Of a stretch of 64,000 bases of DNA, positions 50,170-59,372 are shown in pieces (within the stretch, counting starts at the first letter, position 1; every line of letters starts with the position of its first letter). A model generated the notes under the pieces. The model had not been told where the DNA came from, made no database searches, and saw only the letters and a list, made by a program, of their open reading frames with translations. A program made the position numbers and the translations under genes. The stretch is from the NCBI GenBank assembly GCA_963760615.1, contig CAVXDX010000007.1:32001-96000 (forward strand). The letters are read 5' to 3'. The stretch is from an uncultured Candidatus Micrarchaeota archaeon. GTDB lineage: Archaea > Micrarchaeota > Micrarchaeia > Burarchaeales > Fermentimicrarchaeaceae.

Positions 50170-51296
50170 GACTTGCTATTGCACATCCATTCCTCAGGCT
50201 GAGGGGAGGGGCGGAGAGGGTAGTCCTCAAAATTGCAAAGCACTTTGATGCAAAGGTGTATTGCTCAATATACGAGCCCGAGAATACATTCCCGGAGTTC
50301 AAGGATGTTGACGTTGAGGTGATTGGAAGCGGGCTGTGGCCTTTTGCTTCTCTCCTCCCGGCAAGAGTTGGCAGTGCAGCAGTTGCAGGGGAACAGTTCT
50401 ATTTCAAGGAGCTTGACAATTATGATGTGATAAACGCCCAGGGCACACCTTCGGAGTGGATAAGGAACAAGAACAGCCCAGTGGTGTGGTACTGCTTCTC
50501 TCCAAACAGGGAGGCATTTGATTTGTATGAGTGGAGAATGAAGAGAAGAAATCTTTTCCAGAAGGCGCTCTACTGGTCCTTCCTACAGCCATACAGAAAA
50601 ATAGAACTTTCAGTAGTCCCAAAGATAGAGCATATTTTTGCGATAAGTAAGAATGTTCAGATTAGGATAAGGAGGTATCTTGGCAGGGAATCAGAAATTC
50701 TCATGCCCGGCGTGGATTATGAGGAGTTCCGCGGGGGGGAGTACGAGAAGTACTTCTTCTACCCCTCGAGAATTGCCCCTGAGAAGAATTTTGAGATGGC
50801 AATAGAGGCATTCAAGATGTTCAGGAGGAAGCATAAGGAGTGGAAGTTTATAATTGCAGGTTCACTGGACAGGAACAGGCCGGAGCATGTCGAATACTAT
50901 AACAAAATAAAGAATATTCTTGGAAATGAAGGAAGGATAATGCTGAATTTACCAGCAGAGAAAATTGTTGGGTTATACTCAAACTGCTTCTGCGTTTTGT
51001 ATACGCCTATAAATGAGGATTACGGACTTATACCGCTTGAGGCATTCGCCTCCTCCAAGCCGTGCATAGCAATAAACCAAGGCGGGCCGAGGGAGCTTGT
51101 GAAAGAAGGAGTCGGCTACCTCGTTGATGATGTCGCAGGGATGGTCGGAAAGATGGAATACCTAACTGGGCATCCTTCCGAGACCGAGAGGATGGGCAAG
51201 GCTGCAAGGAAGTATGTTGAGAAGCAATTCTCATGGAAGCAATTCCTGAAAAGGTTTGGGGAAGTCTGCCTCAAGCTATCCAAAGAGAGGACCTAG
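50166..51296 (+). CDS. GT4 glycosyltransferase (ALG2-like)
   Basis: GGAERV, SRIAPEKN, EDYGLIPLEAF. Confidence 0.88.
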   Translation: MRLAIAHPFLRLRGGAERVVLKIAKHFDAKVYCSIYEPENTFPEFKDVDVEVIGSGLWPFASLLPARVGSAAVAGEQFYFKELDNYDVINAQGTPSEWIRNKNSPVVWYCFSPNREAFDLYEWRMKRRNLFQKALYWSFLQPYRKIELSVVPKIEHIFAISKNVQIRIRRYLGRESEILMPGVDYEEFRGGEYEKYFFYPSRIAPEKNFEMAIEAFKMFRRKHKEWKFIIAGSLDRNRPEHVEYYNKIKNILGNEGRIMLNLPAEKIVGLYSNCFCVLYTPINEDYGLIPLEAFASSKPCIAINQGGPRELVKEGVGYLVDDVAGMVGKMEYLTGHPSETERMGKAARKYVEKQFSWKQFLKRFGEVCLKLSKERT

Positions 51297-52744
51297 TTTT
51301 ACGAAAGAGAGCAATGCATTTATCAGTCTTTTGTCATCAGCATCCAGAAGCGGCAGGTATACAAGGCAGAAAATTGCCCCAGCTATGAGGAAAAGCACCA
51401 CTGTGCTGCCTATAAGTGGGTTAAGCAGAATTATCACCGCTGCAACTAGGATGGATGCCAGAGTCGGTTTTAGGAAATGCATTTTGTTGAAGCCTATCCT
51501 AAGCATTCTTAATGACGAGCGGATGAGAAGAGCAAACTGGAACACTTGAGATAGGACGAAGGTGAGGGCAGTTCCAACAAGCCCATACTGCGAGATGAGG
51601 TAGAAGCCGGCAAGCCATGTGAACAGGTATGTCAGAAACACTATGATAGTAAGCTCTTTCATTTTTCCCTTGCTCATGAAAAGATTGGCGCAAATCCCAT
51701 TTAGGAACATGAAAGGTATAATCGGACTGAGCACTCTCAAAGACTGCGCTGCCGGCAGGTAGCTCTGGGGCCATAGAAAGAATATTATTCGGTTTGCAGT
51801 CAGGTAAACCAAAAATGAGAGGGGGATGGAGGCAAGCAACCCATACTTTATGCTCCTGTCAAAAACCCTCCTCTGCAGTTCCATCTCCTTCTTCGCCTCC
51901 ATCTTAACAAGGATGGACAGCAAAAACGTTGAGGAAAGCGGAAGGAGGGAGACGAGAAGAAAAACTACGGAACTGCTCACAGTGAATAGCGCAAGTTCAT
52001 CGGCCCGCGGAAGTAGTTTAGCATTATTGAGTCAATGTTACTGGAAAGAAGACTGGCCATGGTAAGTATTGCCGAGAAGAAAAAGAACGAGTTGATTTTT
52101 CTAGTCTTTGTGGGTACGTAGGTCAAATCCACCTTGAACCTGAATATGAAGAGCAGCAGCGCGGCAATAGTGGCCAGCAGAAACGCAAGCAGCACGCCAG
52201 CTGTTATCGTAACCAGATTGGAGCCGAAGAGCAGAACGAGGATGAGCGGGAATACCACCTTGGAGCCATTGAACGCCATGGAAATTAGTGATGAGTATTC
52301 AAAACGCCCTATGGCGACGAAAAGGTAGTTTATGAACATACTGACAGAGTAGAGAATGGTGAGTGCTCCCAAAGTCTGCATGACATAGGTAAACTGTTCA
52401 TCATGGAGAAAGAATTTGGCGAGGGATGCGGGAAAAAGGATGAGCGCCATGCTTATCAGTATAAGGGTGGCAAGCTTCCACCTCAGCAGATAGCGCACGT
52501 AGAAGCCAGCATGCCCATCCCTTGAATGGAAGCTCTCCCCCACAATCTTTATGAGTGTGTTCGAAACTCCCAGGTCGCCTATTCCGGTAAAGAGCAGCGC
52601 GAAAGCAATAAGGGTGCTGAACACGCCGAAATCCGTCTGACTAAGCAGTCTTGTGAAGAGCAGGGATACCACCACCCCAGAAATAAGGACAGTCACAGGG
52701 GTGATAAGCGCATATATGTTCTGCTCTATGAGCTCCTTCATCAT
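51276..52744 (-). CDS. MOP/Wzx-type flippase, frameshifted at about 52004-52006
   Basis: DFGVFS...DLGVSNTLIK; SNIDSIMLNYFRG continues as ADELALFTVSSSVV... if one G is added; 12-14 TM pattern across both parts. Confidence 0.85.
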
Positions 52745-52812: not shown

Positions 52813-53160
52813 CTAGAACCTGAAAAGCACCCTTGCCAGAACTACAATGACTAGTATTGCCAGCAAGTAGCCGGGAGCCCTTTCTGAAATCTCTTTCACT
52901 CCCCTGTAATAGAATATATACAGCGTAGAGGATGAGAAGGAGAGAATAAACAGAACAAGTAGGTGCGGTATCTCGCCGTTCCTTATCTCCTCCCATGGAG
53001 AACCTTGGAAAAGATTAATTTCATTCACTATTTCGACAATCATCCAGAGCGATATGGTGATAATGATGGAAAGCAGCACTAAGCCTAGCAGCACAGTCCT
53101 AAGCTTCCTCTTTCTATTCTCTCCTGTGACTCTGTCATAGATTTTCGTTCTTATCCTCAT
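52813..53160 (-). CDS. small 3-TM membrane protein downstream of the VirB4-like gene
   Basis: Basic N-terminus then hydrophobic segments; ATG 53160 is 1 nt after the virB4 stop. Confidence 0.6.
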   Translation of the reverse strand: MRIRTKIYDRVTGENRKRKLRTVLLGLVLLSIIITISLWMIVEIVNEINLFQGSPWEEIRNGEIPHLLVLFILSFSSSTLYIFYYRGVKEISERAPGYLLAILVIVVLARVLFRF

Positions 53161-53161
53161 C

Positions 53162-55813
53162 TCACTCAACTCCCTTATCCTCAGGGTGCGTTGTGAAGAG
53201 CCTGTACTCTTCGCTTGCAACAATGTTTTTGAGAGGTATGAAGGTGTTGTTAACGAAGAAAAGCCCGCTCCCGGGCTCCGCAGTCAGCAGGTAATTCTTT
53301 GTTGTCTCGTTAAGCTTGAATGTTGCAGCAACATCGTCTATTATTGACGGCTTCATTCTCAGCAGGAGCTGCCAGGAGGAGTTTGCCATCACCGCCTTGC
53401 CTGCCTTGTTTGTGAGCAGGTCGTACACATCCTGCGTTATGAGAACAAGTCCCATGTTGTGGTGCCTGCATGTTTTGACTATATTCAGGATATAGCCCTC
53501 CTCGCTTTCAGTCTGTAGAAGCTTCCACGCCTCATCAACTACAAGCATCTTCTTCCTAAGGTCTTTCTTCATCCTGTTGTACACGAACTCCAGTATGATG
53601 AACATGAGTATTCTTCTGACCTCCTTTGGCAGCTGACCTATCTTGAATGTTATGAACCTCCAATCAAGCTTCTTTATGTTGGTCTGCCTGTTTATGAATG
53701 AGTAGGAGCCTTTAACAAACCTCCTGAGGGAGGAGGAGATGGCAGTTGCAGCCTCTGCTCGCTTGGCAAAGCTGCTTTTTCTTTCTTTCTCCACATAGCT
53801 GTACAAATCTGAGAGCGTTGGGGCTTCCTTACCCCATGTTTTCGGGTCATGAGTTATGCCCCTTGCCGCGTATATGCTCTCAAATGCCTCATCCAACAGA
53901 TCCTTCATATCGTCCGTGAGTTCTGAGACAAAGAACCTCATCAAAGCGTGGAGGAAGAACAGTTTTTCCTCATAACTCTGCTCGGTTATTTGGAACGGGT
54001 TTATGAATGCATCCGAGTCCTCGGAGAATTCAATTATCTTTCCTCCAAGGCTTGTGGTTAGAGTCTCGTATTCGCCCTCCTCGCTGGGGTCGAGCACAAT
54101 CACGTCTATGCCCTGCTGCAGGGCTCTGCTGAGTATTGTTTTGACCGCAAATGACTTCCCACTGCCCGACATGCCAAGAGCTAGCCCATTTGCATTCTCA
54201 AATGATTTGGAGAATATATCGCAGATTATGGGCATGCCGTCAAGCTGGTTTTCACCAAAGAGAATGCCTTTGGGTTGTGGCTCCAGGTATGCGCTTACAA
54301 ATGGGAAGGATGCAGCCAGAGAAGAGGAAGTCATGTTCCTGCCAACATTGAGCAACTTGTAGCCAAGGGGAGCGCAGCTCCTGAAGCCGGCATCCATCTT
54401 CTCATAGGCAATCTGCGGCTTGAGCCTAATTTCATTGAGCTTGGAAACAACAGTATCTGTAAGCAAATCAAGCTTCTCAAGGCTGTCTGATTCCACGCAT
54501 ACATACAGGGAGAAGAGGAACGCTCTCTCCGAGCCTGATGTCAGCATCTCTATGAGCTGCTCTGTGCCTTTGCGCTGTATTCTTGCTGAGTAGGGAACGA
54601 GTTTGCCTGCAGCCTCATCTGTGGCTATATCTATGGCCTGCTTCTCCAGCACTTTATTGTAGTATTCGAGCACTGAGGAGAAGTTTGTGGGCTGGAGGTA
54701 CATCGATATATGGAATACTCCCCTAGTTATCATGAGAGGTTCTAGGAAGGCAGGGGCTACCAAATCAGGGTAACCGGCAACAGCTATGGTGCGGTAGAAC
54801 TTGTTGTTTATCTGAATGTGATCTCTGCCGGTGTTTATGTATGATGGAGCAACTAGAGTTGAGAGCATTGAGGTGGGAGTGCTGTAGTCAATCCTGCTCT
54901 TGCTGAAGTTCGAAAGATCCTTTACCTCCTCTCTCAATGATTCCCACTTCCTCCTCCAATCCGCCGTAAGAGTTATGGGAGCCAGGTAGCTAGAATTGAA
55001 CTCTGAAAGCGGCGAGAAGAATGAGGAGTAGAGCAGGATTATTCCGTCGTCATTAACCCTCTTTGGGATCAACCCGACATTTGTCAAGCCGTGCATAACA
55101 ATCTGTACTCTTTGCTCCAGGATGCTCAACCTTTCTCTTTCATCCTTCCCCTCATTCCTGCCTGTGCTGACGACAGCGTTGAAGGTTCTGTACATGCTCC
55201 GCTCCTCGCGCACTCTTGTCCTGAGGAATGATTCAAAGGATTTGGAGAATCTCGTGAGACGCGGGTCCTTCGTCTCATCAGCCATTTTTCTCAGGTTATC
55301 AAAGAACTCATTTAGGTTGAGCTGGTGGGTTTTAACAACTACCTGCAATGGGATTGCATCGGAAGAGGAGGAGCCTGAGAGTGAGTCAAGGAAATTCTTG
55401 TAGGATTCAAAGACCGCATTCTGCTGTTTCTCATCAAGCACGGAAAAGTTCATGGGCTGCACTTGTATGATCGCCTTCAGATCCCCATTCTTCATGCGGG
55501 CAACCCCATCATGTATGTCCGCGACATCGATGAACTCCAGAGCCCTCTCATCGAGAAAGCCAATTCTCTTGGGAGAGCGCAGGTATGAGATTTTTGTTGA
55601 AGCCCATCTCTCAAGGTTGAGGAATGTGAAGGCCATCCCAAGTATTGCAATGAGCAGGATGAGAAGATACCTCAGAGTTCCCAGAAACTCAAGCTCCGAG
55701 TAGACAAGAAACTCTGTGAATAGGGTCAGAAGGACATATATGACCTGCCTTCTCCTAAGCCCGAATACGATTACCTCTTCGTAATCCCCAACCTCCTTGG
55801 GGATTTTCACCAT
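53162..55813 (-). CDS. virB4: PrgI-like + TraC-like + VirB4 family ATPase fusion
   Basis: N-terminal VKIPKEV..YEE...FGL.RRQ with TMs (PrgI-like); DIHDG...MNFSVL.E..Q...FLDSL..PLQV middle domain; FRSCAPLG, RNMTSSSLAASFPF, Walker A GMSGSGKS, DPSEEGEY, Walker B VVDEAW, LITQD. Confidence 0.85.
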   Translation of the reverse strand: MVKIPKEVGDYEEVIVFGLRRRQVIYVLLTLFTEFLVYSELEFLGTLRYLLILLIAILGMAFTFLNLERWASTKISYLRSPKRIGFLDERALEFIDVADIHDGVARMKNGDLKAIIQVQPMNFSVLDEKQQNAVFESYKNFLDSLSGSSSSDAIPLQVVVKTHQLNLNEFFDNLRKMADETKDPRLTRFSKSFESFLRTRVREERSMYRTFNAVVSTGRNEGKDERERLSILEQRVQIVMHGLTNVGLIPKRVNDDGIILLYSSFFSPLSEFNSSYLAPITLTADWRRKWESLREEVKDLSNFSKSRIDYSTPTSMLSTLVAPSYINTGRDHIQINNKFYRTIAVAGYPDLVAPAFLEPLMITRGVFHISMYLQPTNFSSVLEYYNKVLEKQAIDIATDEAAGKLVPYSARIQRKGTEQLIEMLTSGSERAFLFSLYVCVESDSLEKLDLLTDTVVSKLNEIRLKPQIAYEKMDAGFRSCAPLGYKLLNVGRNMTSSSLAASFPFVSAYLEPQPKGILFGENQLDGMPIICDIFSKSFENANGLALGMSGSGKSFAVKTILSRALQQGIDVIVLDPSEEGEYETLTTSLGGKIIEFSEDSDAFINPFQITEQSYEEKLFFLHALMRFFVSELTDDMKDLLDEAFESIYAARGITHDPKTWGKEAPTLSDLYSYVEKERKSSFAKRAEAATAISSSLRRFVKGSYSFINRQTNIKKLDWRFITFKIGQLPKEVRRILMFIILEFVYNRMKKDLRKKMLVVDEAWKLLQTESEEGYILNIVKTCRHHNMGLVLITQDVYDLLTNKAGKAVMANSSWQLLLRMKPSIIDDVAATFKLNETTKNYLLTAEPGSGLFFVNNTFIPLKNIVASEEYRLFTTHPEDKGVE

Positions 55814-55896
55814 CAACTCACCACCCAGTTATTTATCGTAGAGAAGGAATATTAAGGTTGCTCTAGCCAGCACAATGTGTAGCACGTATTAATTAA

Positions 55897-55923
55897 GCAC
55901 TTTCTTGTGCCATAAGAAATGCT
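55897..55923. terminator. possible hairpin downstream of the M15 peptidase gene
   Basis: gcactttctt-gtgcccat-aagaaatgc inverted repeat with one bulge. Confidence 0.3.
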
Positions 55924-55944
55924 CTTGATTCAAAGCTGCATTTA

Positions 55945-56616
55945 TTAGCAGTACCGTAGATTGGAGTTAGTCCCTCCATGACCCCAGTCCATGTGAACGT
56001 AGCTATAGACACGTGTACCTGTGTAGTCATACGGTTCCACCCAAGCTCCGCTTTGATTCGCTGCCCTAGCAAGGTTATTCCAGCCTGCACAAGTCCCATC
56101 AGTGTAAATATCTGCAGCATCGCCGTACACATGCCTGCTATTTGTTGCACCATCAACGGCTGCATTCCTTGCAGGATTTCTATAAGCGCTTGAAACACTC
56201 ATTGAGTGCCCATAATTAGTGCGAGTAGCCTCAAGTCCATTGAGGAGCGATTGTTTAATTATTGCCCAGCTATAATCACCAGTATTAAGTGAAGCAAAAC
56301 TGAAATGGTCGCTATGCGCAGTTTGAGTAAAATCACTGCATGTTGGAATCCAACTTACACCATAAGTTTTATACTCTGCAATAATAGTGTCCCTTACATC
56401 TCCGCAACTTGTTGTATTTCCACCACCTCCGCCTCCGCCACCGCCACCGCCGCCACCGCCTCCGCCGCCGCAGCCAAACAGGACTAGAGGTTTCATAATG
56501 CCATCACCTTTAACAATACTCATCATACAGGGCATACCGCTGACTAAGGTCGTGGCAGCAATCATCAGTAAAGAAGTGAAGAGTAGCATACGGATTGGCG
56601 TATGATATTTTCTCAT
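55945..56616 (-). CDS. secreted peptidase M15 family zinc peptidase (D-Ala-D-Ala carboxypeptidase-like) with poly-Gly linker
   Basis: Hydrophobic signal; SAYRNPARN, SRHVYGDAADI (H, D zinc ligands) and VHMD (third ligand). Confidence 0.85.
   Translation of the reverse strand: MRKYHTPIRMLLFTSLLMIAATTLVSGMPCMMSIVKGDGIMKPLVLFGCGGGGGGGGGGGGGGGGGNTTSCGDVRDTIIAEYKTYGVSWIPTCSDFTQTAHSDHFSFASLNTGDYSWAIIKQSLLNGLEATRTNYGHSMSVSSAYRNPARNAAVDGATNSRHVYGDAADIYTDGTCAGWNNLARAANQSGAWVEPYDYTGTRVYSYVHMDWGHGGTNSNLRYC
56419..56469 (-). repeat. 17 consecutive Gly codons
   Basis: Mixed GGC/GGT/GGA codons, so a protein-level poly-Gly rather than a pure DNA microsatellite. Confidence 0.95.
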
Positions 56617-56721: not shown

Positions 56722-57450
56722 TTAGACGACAGCGCCCACTACCGCGCCTATCGCATAGCCGAGAATTGCCGCAATCATGCCAATGAGCGCAAGCTCAAGT
56801 CCACTCTTCCACCATGTTCCAACCGTGAGTTCCGCCTTCACCGCTCCTGCAGCGAATAGCACAACTGCTGAGATTATTACCGACCAGATGACTGCAGTTG
56901 ATACAGGAAGGAGTAAAAATGGGAGAATCGGAACAAACGAGCCGACTATGGCGGATACCCCGACAATCAAAGCATCCTTCAGCGGGTTCTCCTGCCCGCT
57001 TGGAAACAGCTTCAGCTCATCCTTCATCATAACGTCAATCCACCTCTTCCTGTCGGAAGTTATATTGTCAACCACTTTCTCAAGAATATTTCCCCTCAGC
57101 CCTTTCTCATGGAAGATGTCCCACACCTCCTGCCTCTCCAGCTCGGGCATCTCGTCAACCTCGTACTCCTCATTTTTAAGCTCGCTTTCATAGACTTCAT
57201 TTGCAGCTTTTGATGAGGTGTAGCTCACTGCAAGCATGGAGATTGATTCGGCAAACAGCGCAGCTGCGCCTGCTATGAGGATGATTTTTGGGTCCTTGCT
57301 TGCGCTTGCAACTGCGAGGACTACGCCTAGGGTGTTCACCAAGCCGTCCTGCCCCCCAAGGATGAGCTCGCGCATCTTCATCTTTTCAAGCCGGTGCATC
57401 TCCCTTTCTTTTATCCTTCTTCTCAGCTCATTCCTATCACTTTCTTTCAT
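56722..57450 (-). CDS. VIT1/CCC1 family metal transporter
   Basis: ELILGGQDGLV, AESISM...SYTS, SAIVGSFVPILPF. Confidence 0.9.
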   Translation of the reverse strand: MKESDRNELRRRIKEREMHRLEKMKMRELILGGQDGLVNTLGVVLAVASASKDPKIILIAGAAALFAESISMLAVSYTSSKAANEVYESELKNEEYEVDEMPELERQEVWDIFHEKGLRGNILEKVVDNITSDRKRWIDVMMKDELKLFPSGQENPLKDALIVGVSAIVGSFVPILPFLLLPVSTAVIWSVIISAVVLFAAGAVKAELTVGTWWKSGLELALIGMIAAILGYAIGAVVGAVV

Positions 57451-57474
57451 AAAATCACTCGAAATGGTGCAGCA

Positions 57475-57774
57475 TCATATCTTATATATCTGCACATGGG
57501 GCACTTTTTGTATCTTTATTATGTCAGAATCCTTCACAAGCTTCATCCTCTTTGCAATGCCGGTTGCATTCTTCCCGACAAGGTTCATGGATGTTGCAGT
57601 ACGCAACTCCTTCTCCACAGTTGCATCATCCGTCTCCTCCCCCTGGTAGAAGCTGGCGTATTTTTCAAGATTCAAAACAAGCTCGCCCTCCCTGAGGACT
57701 TTGCCTATCAGCTCTGCATCACATACTGCAACTATCTTCTCCTTTCCCTTTTTGAAGGTGCGCATCAGGAGCAT
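57475..57774 (-). CDS. DUF424 family protein
   Basis: IVAVCDAELIGK, FYQGE, NLVGKNA, VPHVQI. Confidence 0.85.
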   Translation of the reverse strand: MLLMRTFKKGKEKIVAVCDAELIGKVLREGELVLNLEKYASFYQGEETDDATVEKELRTATSMNLVGKNATGIAKRMKLVKDSDIIKIQKVPHVQIYKI

Positions 57775-57804
57775 AATAGTATTCCAACGGAGCTATTTAA
57801 ATTA

Positions 57805-59295
57805 TTACTTGACGTCTGTCCCGTAGGTGAATAGGAAGGAGCAGAAGAACAGCCAGCTGTACCAGAACAGCCAGAAGCCGCTTATCACATCATGTCGCAT
57901 GAATGAGAGCACGGAAAACGAGAGCAGGACTAGGGAGAAAGTTGTCTCAGTTGCAGTTACCCTCAACGCGTCGATTACAGAACGCCTCTGCTCGTTCTGC
58001 CTTGTCATTACGAACTTTGTCTTGAAGCCGAACAGGCCAACAAGCATTGCTTTCGCCCTCACTATAGCGGTGGCGAAGTTCAGGAAGAAGGCGAGCAAGC
58101 CCGATTTAAAGGAGCCGAAGTAAAGCCTGCCTCCAAGCACGACAAGTATTACTACCGACAGCATATAGCTCACCGCAACAAGCTTCATTTGCTCCGGGAT
58201 AAGGACTTGGGAGTTCAGGCTTCTCAGGCTTATGTCGGTCAGCACGAAAATCACTCCGAGCACTGCGTAGAATATGAACAGTATGGAAAGATAGGCGTAG
58301 CCAAAAGTCTGGCTCAGGTAATGGATGCGCTTCTCATTGCTCAGTTTTGAGAAATTCTGAAGGAATTCCCTCAGTGTCCACATGTTTCCAATGGTGTACC
58401 TCCACTGCTGGGAGAGGAACATCTCGAAGCTCTCTATCGGTGCGCCGAAGGCGTATCTCTTCGATATGAATACTCCTCCCCTCCCGGCAAGATCAGCCTT
58501 GAACGCGAATGCCAAATCCTCTGTGGGTGAATTTGGGAACCCTCCGACAAGCTTCACCACCGACTTTCTGACAATGCCGCAGGAACCGCAGAACATAGGA
58601 CTCCTGCAGAGGTTCCTGACAGTCTGCATGAAGCGGTAGAAGAACAGGTAATAAACATTGACTGCGTTTGCAAAGAAGCTCCCGGGAGCGAACTCCTTTA
58701 TAGTTTGAACGAAGCCTGCCTCCTCATCAAGGAACGGCAGTGTTTCTTTTAGGAAGCTTGTGTCGGTGAGGCATTCATCAGCATCGAATATCGCGATGTA
58801 TTCCTCGTCGACCATGTCAAGGAATTTGTTCATCACGTAGCTTTTGAGCTTCACAGGGTTTTCCATGTAAAGGTAATTAACTCCTATTCCCTTGCAGAAC
58901 TTTTCGAGCTGCCAGGATTTTTCAGTTGAATTATCCAGCAGGAATATCCTCAGCTTGTCATTGGGGTAGTCCACCTTCGTTATTGACTCAATATTCCTCT
59001 TGACCATCTCTTCGTCTTCATTCCTTGTCGGCATCACTATGGCAACTGGCGGATACTTCCTTATTTTCTTGGGAGTGAATTTCTCAAGCCCATATGAGCG
59101 CAGGTAGTAGTAGCATCCGAACGTGTTGAATATGGTGTTTATTATAACAAGAGTTAGGAATAAGAATGCAAGGATTGTTTCTGGCAGCGTATTGACTATG
59201 AAAAGCAGCATGTAGACGCCGTAGTTGATTCCGCCAATAGACACGCCCATTATTGCAATTACGAGGGCCCAACGGATAGCCAAATCTCTATCCAT
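57805..59295 (-). CDS. cellulose-synthase-like processive GT2 membrane glycosyltransferase
   Basis: 2 N-terminal TMs, PTRNE, LDNS, K, FDAD, FVQT, FCGS, TED, QQWRY, C-terminal TMs. Confidence 0.85.
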   Translation of the reverse strand: MDRDLAIRWALVIAIMGVSIGGINYGVYMLLFIVNTLPETILAFLFLTLVIINTIFNTFGCYYYLRSYGLEKFTPKKIRKYPPVAIVMPTRNEDEEMVKRNIESITKVDYPNDKLRIFLLDNSTEKSWQLEKFCKGIGVNYLYMENPVKLKSYVMNKFLDMVDEEYIAIFDADECLTDTSFLKETLPFLDEEAGFVQTIKEFAPGSFFANAVNVYYLFFYRFMQTVRNLCRSPMFCGSCGIVRKSVVKLVGGFPNSPTEDLAFAFKADLAGRGGVFISKRYAFGAPIESFEMFLSQQWRYTIGNMWTLREFLQNFSKLSNEKRIHYLSQTFGYAYLSILFIFYAVLGVIFVLTDISLRSLNSQVLIPEQMKLVAVSYMLSVVILVVLGGRLYFGSFKSGLLAFFLNFATAIVRAKAMLVGLFGFKTKFVMTRQNEQRRSVIDALRVTATETTFSLVLLSFSVLSFMRHDVISGFWLFWYSWLFFCSFLFTYGTDVK

Positions 59296-59372
59296 GTTAT
59301 CATTCCCTGATGTCATAAGTGTTTTGCCAGGCACTATTTAAATAATTGCTATTCTGAAGTTGCGGGAATTTT

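Follow-up and report, generated by a model that had tools for sequence, protein, structure and literature searches.

A PrgI/TrsD-like/VirB4 fusion protein as the probable motor of a dispersed type IV secretion-like machine in one family of Micrarchaeota

In a 64,000-nucleotide stretch of the genome of an uncultured Candidatus Micrarchaeota archaeon (hereafter the window; G000:C7:32001-96000), a minus-strand gene encodes an 883-aa protein in which a PrgI (VirB3)-like membrane anchor, a TrsD-like domain, and a VirB4 ATPase of type IV secretion systems (T4SSs) are joined in one chain. We regard this fusion protein as the probable motor of a dispersed, vertically inherited, T4SS-like pilus or contact machine that is confined to one family of Micrarchaeota. 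Judging from sequence comparisons, the machine appears to descend from a monoderm conjugation apparatus (mating-pair formation class FATA, MPF-FATA), and the relaxase-less chromosomal T4SS of Patescibacteria (candidate phyla radiation, CPR) appears to be its closest relative. A previous, sequence-only reading had described the region as a minimal, stand-alone module consisting of the fusion gene, a gene for a small membrane protein, and a cell-wall peptidase gene. The three open reading frames (ORFs) of that module were all found on the minus strand as described, at 52813-53223 (136 aa), 53162-55816 (884 aa), and 55945-56616 (223 aa). The window's own genome (G000; 1.14 Mb, 16 contigs, 91% complete) was compared with nine related genomes (G001-G009), including G001, G002, G003, and G005 of the same genus and G006 of the sister genus, all in family f1 of Micrarchaeota. 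C3, C4, C6, C7, C8, and C14 denote contigs of G000 and L numbers denote single loci or contigs; positions given without a contig are those of the window. The islands of the five relatives just named, together with those of eight metagenome contigs, are referred to as the 13 orthologous loci.

The domain structure of the fusion protein was examined with Pfam and NCBIfam models. The gene (53162-55813, minus strand) probably starts with the ATG at 55813, with an alternative TTG start at 55816. Residues 4-84 (55565-55807, minus strand) matched the PrgI family PF12666 with 29.7 bits against a cut-off of 27, and with 34.5 bits in a six-frame search, and two hydrophobic segments lie within residues ~25-66, forming the two-helix membrane hairpin expected of PrgI/VirB3 proteins. 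The region that follows (54917-55534, minus strand) contains the motifs DIHDG (55505-55519) and PLQV (55340-55351), on which the sequence-only reading had based a separate middle domain. The NCBIfam TrsD/TraD model matched residues 108-178 of the fusion protein (1.9e-7), the Mycoplasma-type model VirB4_plasma and TIGR00929 aligned with residues 95-858 and 103-846, respectively, both under their own cut-offs, and the Pfam family TraC_F_IV matched residues 115-275 weakly. The alignments with VirB4_plasma, TIGR00929, and TrsD identify the supposed middle domain as the N-terminal domain of VirB4. The C-terminal ATPase domain (53165-54901, minus strand) matched P-loop_TraG over residues 523-846 (1e-29), and DUF87 and AAA_10 matched the same stretch. 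Both catalytic motifs are intact, Walker A as GMSGSGKS at residues 548-555 (54152-54175) and Walker B as VVDEAW at residues 759-764 (53525-53542), and in alignments with distant homologues G551, G553, K554, D761, and E762 are invariant. The whole protein passed the cut-off of the CD1110-type conjugation VirB4 equivalog, NF045971 conju_CD1110, narrowly (326.6 against 325 bits), and scored far below those of the CedB equivalog NF041017 (55.3 against 700 bits) and of CedD (34.6 against 600 bits). By these profile matches the fusion protein is classified, within the VirB4 family of T4SS ATPases, as a likely member of the CD1110/MPF-FATA type, and the fusion of PrgI, middle domain, and VirB4 is genuine, as the earlier reading had it.

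The fusion gene is preceded by a conserved signal (55818-55856, minus strand), which comprises a TATA-like element CTTAATATT at 55848-55856, the element ATAAATAA at 55829-55836, and a Shine-Dalgarno-like element GGGTGGTGA at 55818-55826. The ~50 nt before the start (CTTAATAT..., ATAAATAA, GGGTGGTGA) are recognisably alike in five of the six genomes compared (G000, G001, G002, G003, and G005), and the DNA beyond them could not be aligned between genomes. G006 dropped out of this alignment, since the start assigned to its ORF lies further upstream. We infer that the conserved stretch contains the promoter of the fusion gene.

Directly downstream of the fusion gene, a minus-strand gene (52813-53160) encodes a 115-aa protein with three transmembrane (TM) helices. 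Its conserved start (MR.RTKI, ATG at 53160) lies 1 nt past the TGA of the fusion gene. The genomes G001, G002, G003, G005, and G006 also have this gene behind the fusion gene (48-74% identity); of the eight metagenome contigs, at least six and probably seven do so, and a 117-aa homologue occupies the same position in the more distant genome G008. Its dN/dS (the ratio of nonsynonymous to synonymous substitution rates) ranged from 0.11 to 0.26. No known family was found for the 3-TM protein in Pfam, and the ESM Atlas returned only unnamed clusters, at 0.90 or below. The possibility that it is a second pilin with a long leader was dropped, as profile-profile comparison with VirB2-like pilins gave a probability of 0.5%.

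We then examined the conservation of the locus. Full-length orthologues of the fusion protein, with 80-93% identity, are present in G001, G002, G003, G005, and G006, and one with 61% identity is present in G008; none was found in G004, G007, or G009. In both genera, and likewise on the eight metagenome contigs, the fusion gene occupies the same site, with a family 2 glycosyltransferase (GT2) gene and a 99-aa gene (p99) on one side and a polysaccharide flippase gene on the other. Recurrence on this scale is well beyond chance. The genes between these flanks differ from genome to genome, except for the pair of fusion and 3-TM genes, which is inverted relative to the flanks in G002, G005, G006, and most of the metagenome contigs. 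The reading frame of the fusion gene is intact in at least 13 loci. For G000 and G001, the least saturated pair (dS 0.86), dN/dS of the fusion gene was 0.073, within the range of flanking and housekeeping genes (0.05-0.10), and against G002, G005, and G006 its dN was 0.10-0.14, the same as for purP, glmM, and an enzyme gene in the neighbourhood. These values of the fusion and 3-TM genes are not those of a decaying remnant. The subtype found in the window (at least 57% identity) occurs only in family f1, in six of nine genomes, and relatives with 28-38% identity are patchy, some match being present in 33 of 201 genomes of the class. The chromosomal setting proposed earlier is borne out by the shared site, and a branching order that follows taxonomy agrees with vertical inheritance. 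No tRNA or Rfam match was obtained in the window and no integrase was detected among the scanned genes neighbouring the fusion gene, nor was an att repeat or tRNA seen nearby; an intact integrated element at this site was rejected on account of the missing tRNA/Rfam matches and integrase.

Several observations were made on the surroundings of the pair. The adjoining glycosylation island (56722-59334; loci L127-L135) is a mosaic, in which the GT2 genes are 94%, 82%, 67%, or ~40% identical between contigs and VIT1 is present only in some. The flippase gene (Polysacc_synt; 51276-52744, minus strand) is split in G000 into ORFs of 255 and 234 aa with a 4-nt overlap, and relatives have a single ORF of 489-491 aa; the split reflects a frameshift, a stop, or an assembly error.

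Likely partners of the VirB4 motor were found when the whole genome and its relatives were considered. In G008 (locus L024), a co-oriented cluster encodes a 109-aa pilin, a 517-aa protein, a 314-aa protein with eight to nine TM helices, the fusion protein, the 117-aa 3-TM protein, and a 1076-aa P-loop protein, in this order. Counterparts of the first three are present in G000 on two other contigs. Contig C4 carries a gene for an exported 503-aa immunoglobulin (Ig)-like protein (C4:86040-87551), matching the 517-aa protein of G008 with an E value of 2.5e-66, and, overlapping it, a gene for a VirB6-like 291-aa 8-TM protein (C4:87539-88414), matching the 8-TM protein of G008 with an E value of 1.9e-26. 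On contig C3, a gene at 165978-166298 encodes a VirB2/TrbC-type pilin of 106 aa, which is 51% identical to that of G008 (E 9e-30). All three match their G008 counterparts far better than they match the copies in two further clusters of G000, on contigs C8 and C14, and the genes on C3 and C4 therefore have the same evolutionary affinity as the fusion gene. The attributes "minimal" and "stand-alone" given earlier to the window's genes could thus not be upheld.

The positions of these genes are conserved as well. In G001, G002, G003, and G006, the C4 pair invariably has purP on one side and a glmM-like gene on the other. The pilin gene lies beside the same operon of a ferredoxin-fused (Fer4) pilus ATPase in G000, G002, and G008, and the entire cluster of G008 sits at this place. 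In G002, where the genes are on a single contig, the C4-type pair is 85 kb from the fusion gene, and the pilin gene is ~830 kb from them. The contiguous order seen in G008, in the clusters on C8 and C14, and in bacterial systems argues for a break-up of the cluster in the ancestor of the two genera, with the pilin gene as the piece left at the original site. The T4SS-type pilin gene is divergent from the type IV pilus ATPase operon (G000:C3:163220-165244; L024:15170-17350), so that two pilus systems share one neighbourhood. The 1076-aa P-loop NTPase gene behind the 3-TM gene of G008 (L024:5920-9150), with weak NACHT/AAA matches, has a 33%-identical relative in G000 at C3:46051-48120.

All five parts (pilin, Ig-like protein, VirB6-like protein, fusion protein, and 3-TM protein) are present in G000, G002, G003, G006, and G008, and none of them was found in G007 or G009. 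The 503-aa gene had a dN/dS of ~0.16 and the 8-TM gene one of 0.10-0.31; both accordingly evolve faster than the fusion gene, yet under constraint.

The assignments of the dispersed proteins differ in strength. The C3 pilin matched PF18895 T4SS_pilin with 37.9 bits (cut-off 26.6) and PF04956 TrbC/VirB2 with 32.3 bits (cut-off 27.9), and its hydrophobic segments at residues 1, 26, and 69 agree with the layout of VirB2/TrbC pilins. For the 503-aa protein, of which 155 representative relatives were collected, the structural model (pLDDT 94) comprises an N-terminal signal or anchor, a small helical domain, tandem beta-sandwiches of an Ig- or macroglobulin (MG)-like type, and a C-terminal TM helix; its structure matches were adhesins and the MG domains of alpha-2-macroglobulin and complement. 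The AlphaFold model of the 8-TM protein had a pLDDT of 77, and the top seven among 350,542 chains searched with Foldseek were all TrwI/VirB6 of R388 (E ~0.03, probability ~0.9). VIA-align gave Z values of 10.4, 9.9, and 9.6 for its comparison with TrwI/VirB6 over 219-227 residues (Z 10.4 for 227 of 261), which lie under the caution level of ~13 for helical proteins, so that a helical-bundle match with Z ~10 may be non-specific. The 8-TM gene of G008 lies just upstream of the PrgI-VirB4 gene, and this position supports a VirB6-like identity because TrbL holds the same position in pBMB67 of B. thuringiensis. The Pfam TrbL match within the 8-TM family was weak (2 of 13 members, 0.003), and TrbL (PF04610) was not detected in the scan of the G000 genome. 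Since helical Z values can be non-specific and the TrbL match is weak, we consider the C4 8-TM protein VirB6-like with moderate confidence.

To place the fusion protein among known VirB4 proteins, species-representative genomes were scanned, yielding 80 loci, of which those outside Micrarchaeota belong nearly all to Patescibacteria (Roizman-, Gottesman-, Woese-, and Levybacteria, WWE3, Saccharibacteria, and others). The CPR VirB4 proteins are 27-38% identical to the fusion protein over residues 94-880 (E 1e-95 to 1e-112), and the best plasmid matches were from Firmicutes, with 24-25% identity (E ~1e-45). In the CPR loci, a PrgI-like 2-TM gene, a TrsD-like gene of ~218 aa, and a VirB4 gene of ~590 aa are separate neighbours, as the sequence-only reading had stated. 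For the ATPase domain, a tree was computed from 62 rows and 585 columns by a quick search with IQ-TREE (LG+G4), with Firmicutes-type sequences as the root. It recovered a Micrarchaeota clade with an SH-aLRT support of 99, which consists of the window subtype (100), a subclade of element-type proteins (100), and the protein of G019. This clade is sister to the CPR clade (SH-aLRT 99) and is not nested in it, in keeping with the CPR affinity noted before. Branching inside the window subtype follows taxonomy, as vertical descent predicts. A number of records titled "uncultured Gammaproteobacteria" or "Pseudomonadales" (L051, L053, L059, L101, L117, and others) have VirB4 sequences that nest within Patescibacteria clades; the taxonomy of these metagenome-assembled genomes is therefore probably wrong.

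The third gene of the region encodes a secreted M15_3 peptidase with a 17-Gly linker (55945-56616, minus strand), which is a genome-specific insert. It matched PF08291 Peptidase_M15_3 with 51.1 bits (1.7e-13; cut-off 23.2), has a signal-like N-terminus, and contains SRHVYGDAAD and VHMD, which fit the predicted H-x6-D ... H zinc motif of M15_3; a weak match to the D-Ala-D-Ala carboxypeptidase 1LBU was also obtained. Neither the 13 orthologous loci nor the remaining parts of the relatives' genomes yielded a homologue, and searching 200 genomes of the class gave none either; no other hydrolase is present beside the fusion gene in the relatives, where the place is taken by AbrB/MazE-domain proteins, a methyltransferase, and proteins without assignment. 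In G003 (L027:975-3233), it holds paralogous AbrB/MazE (SpoVT-AbrB) proteins of 350 and 359 aa, one of which has a homologue in the island of G006. The GC content at third codon positions (GC3) of the peptidase gene is 0.379, against 0.53-0.63 in neighbouring genes, and the gene has TATA-like and Shine-Dalgarno-like signals of its own. The gap of 128 nt between it and the fusion gene is unconserved apart from the fusion gene's own signal. Its nearest relatives are unnamed metagenome proteins with 64% identity or less; no relative was found in viral contigs, and alignments with peptidases of microviruses and other phages were weak and partial (28-41% identity). Its composition and distribution suggest that the peptidase is a recently acquired gene unrelated to the conserved system, apparently a case in which an archaeon has lately gained a peptidoglycan-type enzyme by horizontal transfer. 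With the peptidase absent from the relatives and only the fusion and 3-TM genes recurring, the conserved unit is the fusion gene together with the 3-TM gene. The role of a VirB1-like component assigned earlier to the peptidase fell with its adjacency, which is not conserved in the 13 loci or the 200 genomes, and once it is excluded from the system nothing supports a use of the machine against bacterial cells.

G000 contains further VirB4-related loci. The clusters on C8 (59688-66056) and C14 (62268-68502), which we call element-type, have the order pilin(s), Ig-like protein, 8-TM protein, and PrgI-VirB4, with ATPases that are 29-34% identical to the window fusion protein. The C14 VirB4 gene (65384-68502) is split into three ORFs of 268, 313, and 485 aa, and one of the breaks falls in the ATPase domain between Walker A and B. 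In the C8 gene (59688-62958), which is split in two, one ORF encodes PrgI and the N-domain and the other an ATPase of 805 aa that is extended at its C-terminus. Contig C6 encodes a HerA/VirB4-like ATPase of ~517 aa that is common across the class. With their pilins and channel genes, the two PrgI-VirB4 clusters on C8 and C14 also speak against a minimal, stand-alone module.

By analogy with VirB4 systems, the following mechanism may be proposed. The region 52813-55813 (minus strand) would be a two-gene transcription unit encoding a membrane-anchored motor and a translationally coupled 3-TM subunit. The PrgI hairpin would hold the fusion protein in the membrane, where it may dock on the VirB6-like channel and spend ATP on extracting pilin and building a pilus or conduit. 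An external stalk or adhesin could be provided by the Ig-like protein, and the machine as a whole may mediate contact-dependent exchange or uptake of macromolecules with neighbouring cells. Classical plasmid conjugation is not proposed, because no coupling protein or relaxase was found with the profiles PF02534, PF12696, and PF03432.

A number of points, besides the reservations on the VirB6-like protein given above, weigh against a dispersed machine of this kind. The assembly of the five proteins, encoded at three loci, into one machine is an inference, as is any cargo that it would move. G008 alone provides a contiguous example of the window subtype, and the ancestral order is otherwise taken from more distant clusters. 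The parts do not always occur together: G001 has all but the pilin gene (91% complete, with the pilin's neighbouring marker gene likewise not found); in G005, the 503-aa gene is absent although its site is intact, and the pilin gene was not found (~91% complete, the neighbouring marker also not found); and G004 (96% complete) has only the pilin and 8-TM genes, the fusion, 3-TM, and 503-aa genes being missing at intact sites. On the metagenome contig Ga0153916_10007571 (L127:3510-6179), the fusion protein at the same site is 59% identical, the GT2 gene beside it is 82% identical, and no 3-TM gene follows; this may be an allelic replacement by recombination or fast divergence. dS was saturated in most genome pairs, and usable ratios came from G000-G001 and a few other pairs. 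The tree has long stems (~1.0-1.2) and few non-CPR outgroups, and Ced, Ted, and archaeal plasmid VirB4 proteins were left out of it. The profiles of type IV coupling proteins (T4CPs; PF02534 and PF12696) gave no match in G000 (91% complete), with controls giving matches and FtsK-type proteins not searched separately, and the MOBP/Q relaxase profile PF03432 gave none either, other MOB families not having been searched; within the scope of these three profiles, the sequence-only reading, which had seen neither, is supported.

Some of these points would also fit a relic of a degraded integrated conjugative element, in which the pair was left behind after the loss of channel, pilin, and DNA-processing genes and either has no machine to drive or has taken on an unrelated ATPase role. 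The pair lies in a hypervariable glycosylation island with neighbours that differ everywhere, in which it has been inverted and the GT2 alleles are mosaic. The related PrgI-VirB4 clusters have the patchy distribution (33 of 201 genomes) typical of mobile elements, the pair is missing from G004 and the 3-TM gene from L127, and the T4CP and relaxase profiles found nothing. We nevertheless consider a relic unlikely, as the frame is intact in 13 or more loci with a dN/dS of 0.07 and dN values as in housekeeping genes, the catalytic motifs are invariant, and the upstream signal is conserved, with no integrase, att repeat, or tRNA nearby. The partners are moreover present elsewhere in the genome, with the same affinity to G008 and under purifying selection. 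The intact fusion protein might also act in trans for the C8 and C14 clusters, for example by replacing their ATPases, which are split into two and three ORFs, respectively, with one break inside the ATPase domain; these clusters hold pilins, Ig-like proteins, and 8-TM genes of their own. This is very improbable, because the fusion gene is kept in G001, G002, G005, and G006, where an element-type VirB4 was not found, and because its product shares no more than 29-34% identity with the ATPases of C8 and C14 and has better-matched partners on C3 and C4.

The self-sufficient trio of the sequence-only reading, with the M15 peptidase as a VirB1-like hydrolase that might attack bacterial cells, drew on the adjacency and common orientation of the three genes in G000 and on the fact that such hydrolases belong to monoderm T4SSs, as does the C39 peptidase beside the PrgI-VirB4 fusion of Vescimonas. 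We give it hardly any credence: the peptidase is missing from all 13 orthologous loci and from the 200 genomes of the class with no stand-in hydrolase, its GC3 is deviant, it has its own promoter-like signal behind a largely unconserved gap of 128 nt, and a VirB4 without a channel is no known working unit, whereas channel candidates exist elsewhere in the genome. The remaining alternative accepts the same dispersed machine and assigns it a different task, namely the import of DNA from neighbouring cells for repair or nucleotide supply, as in Ced and Ted systems. The parts list (pilin, VirB6-like protein, VirB4-family ATPase, and no relaxase or T4CP found) matches that of Ced and Ted, as far as PMC9905601 is represented in PMC12102498, and a small genome of 1.14 Mb would fit a reliance on scavenged material. 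The ATPase, however, is no CedB (55 against 700 bits) and scores 327 bits with the CD1110 VirB4 model, its nearest relatives are CPR T4SS ATPases of unknown substrate, and none of the parts was recognised as DNA-binding or DNA-processing; a DNA importer is a possibility that we hold to be rather unlikely. Domain identities, synteny, co-occurrence, purifying selection, and phylogenetic placement are matters of observation, and with them in view we favour the dispersed pilus or contact machine.

A more specific proposal, which we make tentatively and with some doubt, is that a DPANN family keeps a working counterpart of the T4SS needed by Patescibacteria for epibiosis, which in the window genus stays functional even though its operon was split into three parts that are transcribed on their own and its VirB3, TrsD, and VirB4 have become one chain. 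If this is true, ultrasmall host-dependent lineages of two domains share sister contact machines derived from conjugation, implying an old inter-domain transfer. Little is known of the means by which DPANN archaea adhere to other cells and exchange material with these, and an archaeal sister lineage of the Patescibacteria T4SS offers a five-protein parts list and a contrast between a contiguous (G008) and a dispersed (window genus) arrangement, in which pilus, contact, and cargo can be tested. When a T4SS gene in a reduced genome seems to be an "orphan", it should be judged together with the rest of that genome and with related genomes. The connection between the ATPase and a peptidoglycan peptidase, attractive but mistaken, is removed. 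A PrgI-VirB4 fusion as such is already known in bacteria (Vescimonas); what is new here is the linking of the dispersed pieces via the G008 cluster. We found no description of this clade in the literature on Micrarchaeota or DPANN and VirB4, in which the nearest report is of VirB4-like domains within giant nanohaloarchaeal proteins (PMC10266531).

Among known systems, the Patescibacteria T4SS is the closest. It comprises VirB4, TrsD, PrgI/VirB3, VirB6, and VirB2-like pilins, is chromosomal and without relaxase, and is of MPF-FATA descent (Quinonero-Coronel et al. 2025, PMC12102498); the data of that study, in which no VirB3-VirB4 fusion is reported, took in 12 archaeal VirB4 proteins (Ced, Ted, and plasmid-borne), none of them from DPANN. 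The T4SS of Southlakia epibionticum, which may form a pilus, is reported to be indispensable when this organism grows as an epibiont, and apart from Patescibacteria, monoderm T4SSs are without VirB2-type pilins (2025 review, PMC12857230). The Micrarchaeota machine shares with it the component set of VirB4, TrsD, PrgI, VirB6 (here tentative), and VirB2-like pilin, a chromosomal location with no relaxase (PF03432) found, and an ultrasmall, reduced genome as its setting; the VirB4 proteins are nearest relatives and sister clades. It differs in that the host is archaeal, PrgI, TrsD, and VirB4 are fused in one chain instead of being encoded by separate genes, the genes of the window genus are spread over three loci with no T4CP homologue found, and a family-specific 3-TM subunit and an anchored Ig-like protein are present.

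The monoderm MPF-FATA systems resemble it in that the fusion protein passes the cut-off of the CD1110-family VirB4, and in that pBMB67 has the order TrbL/VirB6, PrgI, and VirB4. A PrgI-VirB4 fusion also occurs on pMM35_02 of Vescimonas, where it is named "PrgI family protein" (942 aa) and has genes for a C39 peptidase and a VirD4-like protein as neighbours. In contrast to these systems, the fusion protein is only 24-25% identical to theirs, no conserved wall hydrolase and no VirD4-like coupling protein or relaxase was found, and the Micrarchaeota version is not on a plasmid or an integrative and conjugative element and has a VirB2-type pilin. The Ced (Sulfolobales) and Ted (Thermoproteales) DNA-import systems (PMC9905601, as cited in PMC12102498) are likewise archaeal, chromosomal, derived from conjugation, and without relaxase, and their parts include a VirB2-like pilin, a membrane protein resembling VirB6, and an ATPase of the VirB4/HerA class. 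The fusion protein is, however, not CedB-like; it carries PrgI and VirB4 N-terminal domains, and its lineage is tied to CPR and MPF-FATA and not to the crenarchaeal systems. Closer to home, the element-type clusters (C8, C14, and G026) share the order pilin(s), Ig-like protein of ~540-580 aa, 8-TM protein, and PrgI-VirB4, and belong to the same Micrarchaeota VirB4 clade. They are only 29-34% identical and patchy, their ATPases are split or extended at the C-terminus, and they have no 3-TM partner, whereas the window type keeps to constant chromosomal sites within a single family. The dispersal itself has a counterpart in the rvh T4SS of Rickettsiales, the genes of which lie in several scattered islets of a reduced genome and are still functional, although that system is bacterial, diderm, and of the MPF-T class, with a full VirB/VirD4 set. 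The rvh system thus provides a precedent for the break-up of T4SS genes without loss of constraint, an arrangement that is otherwise unusual.

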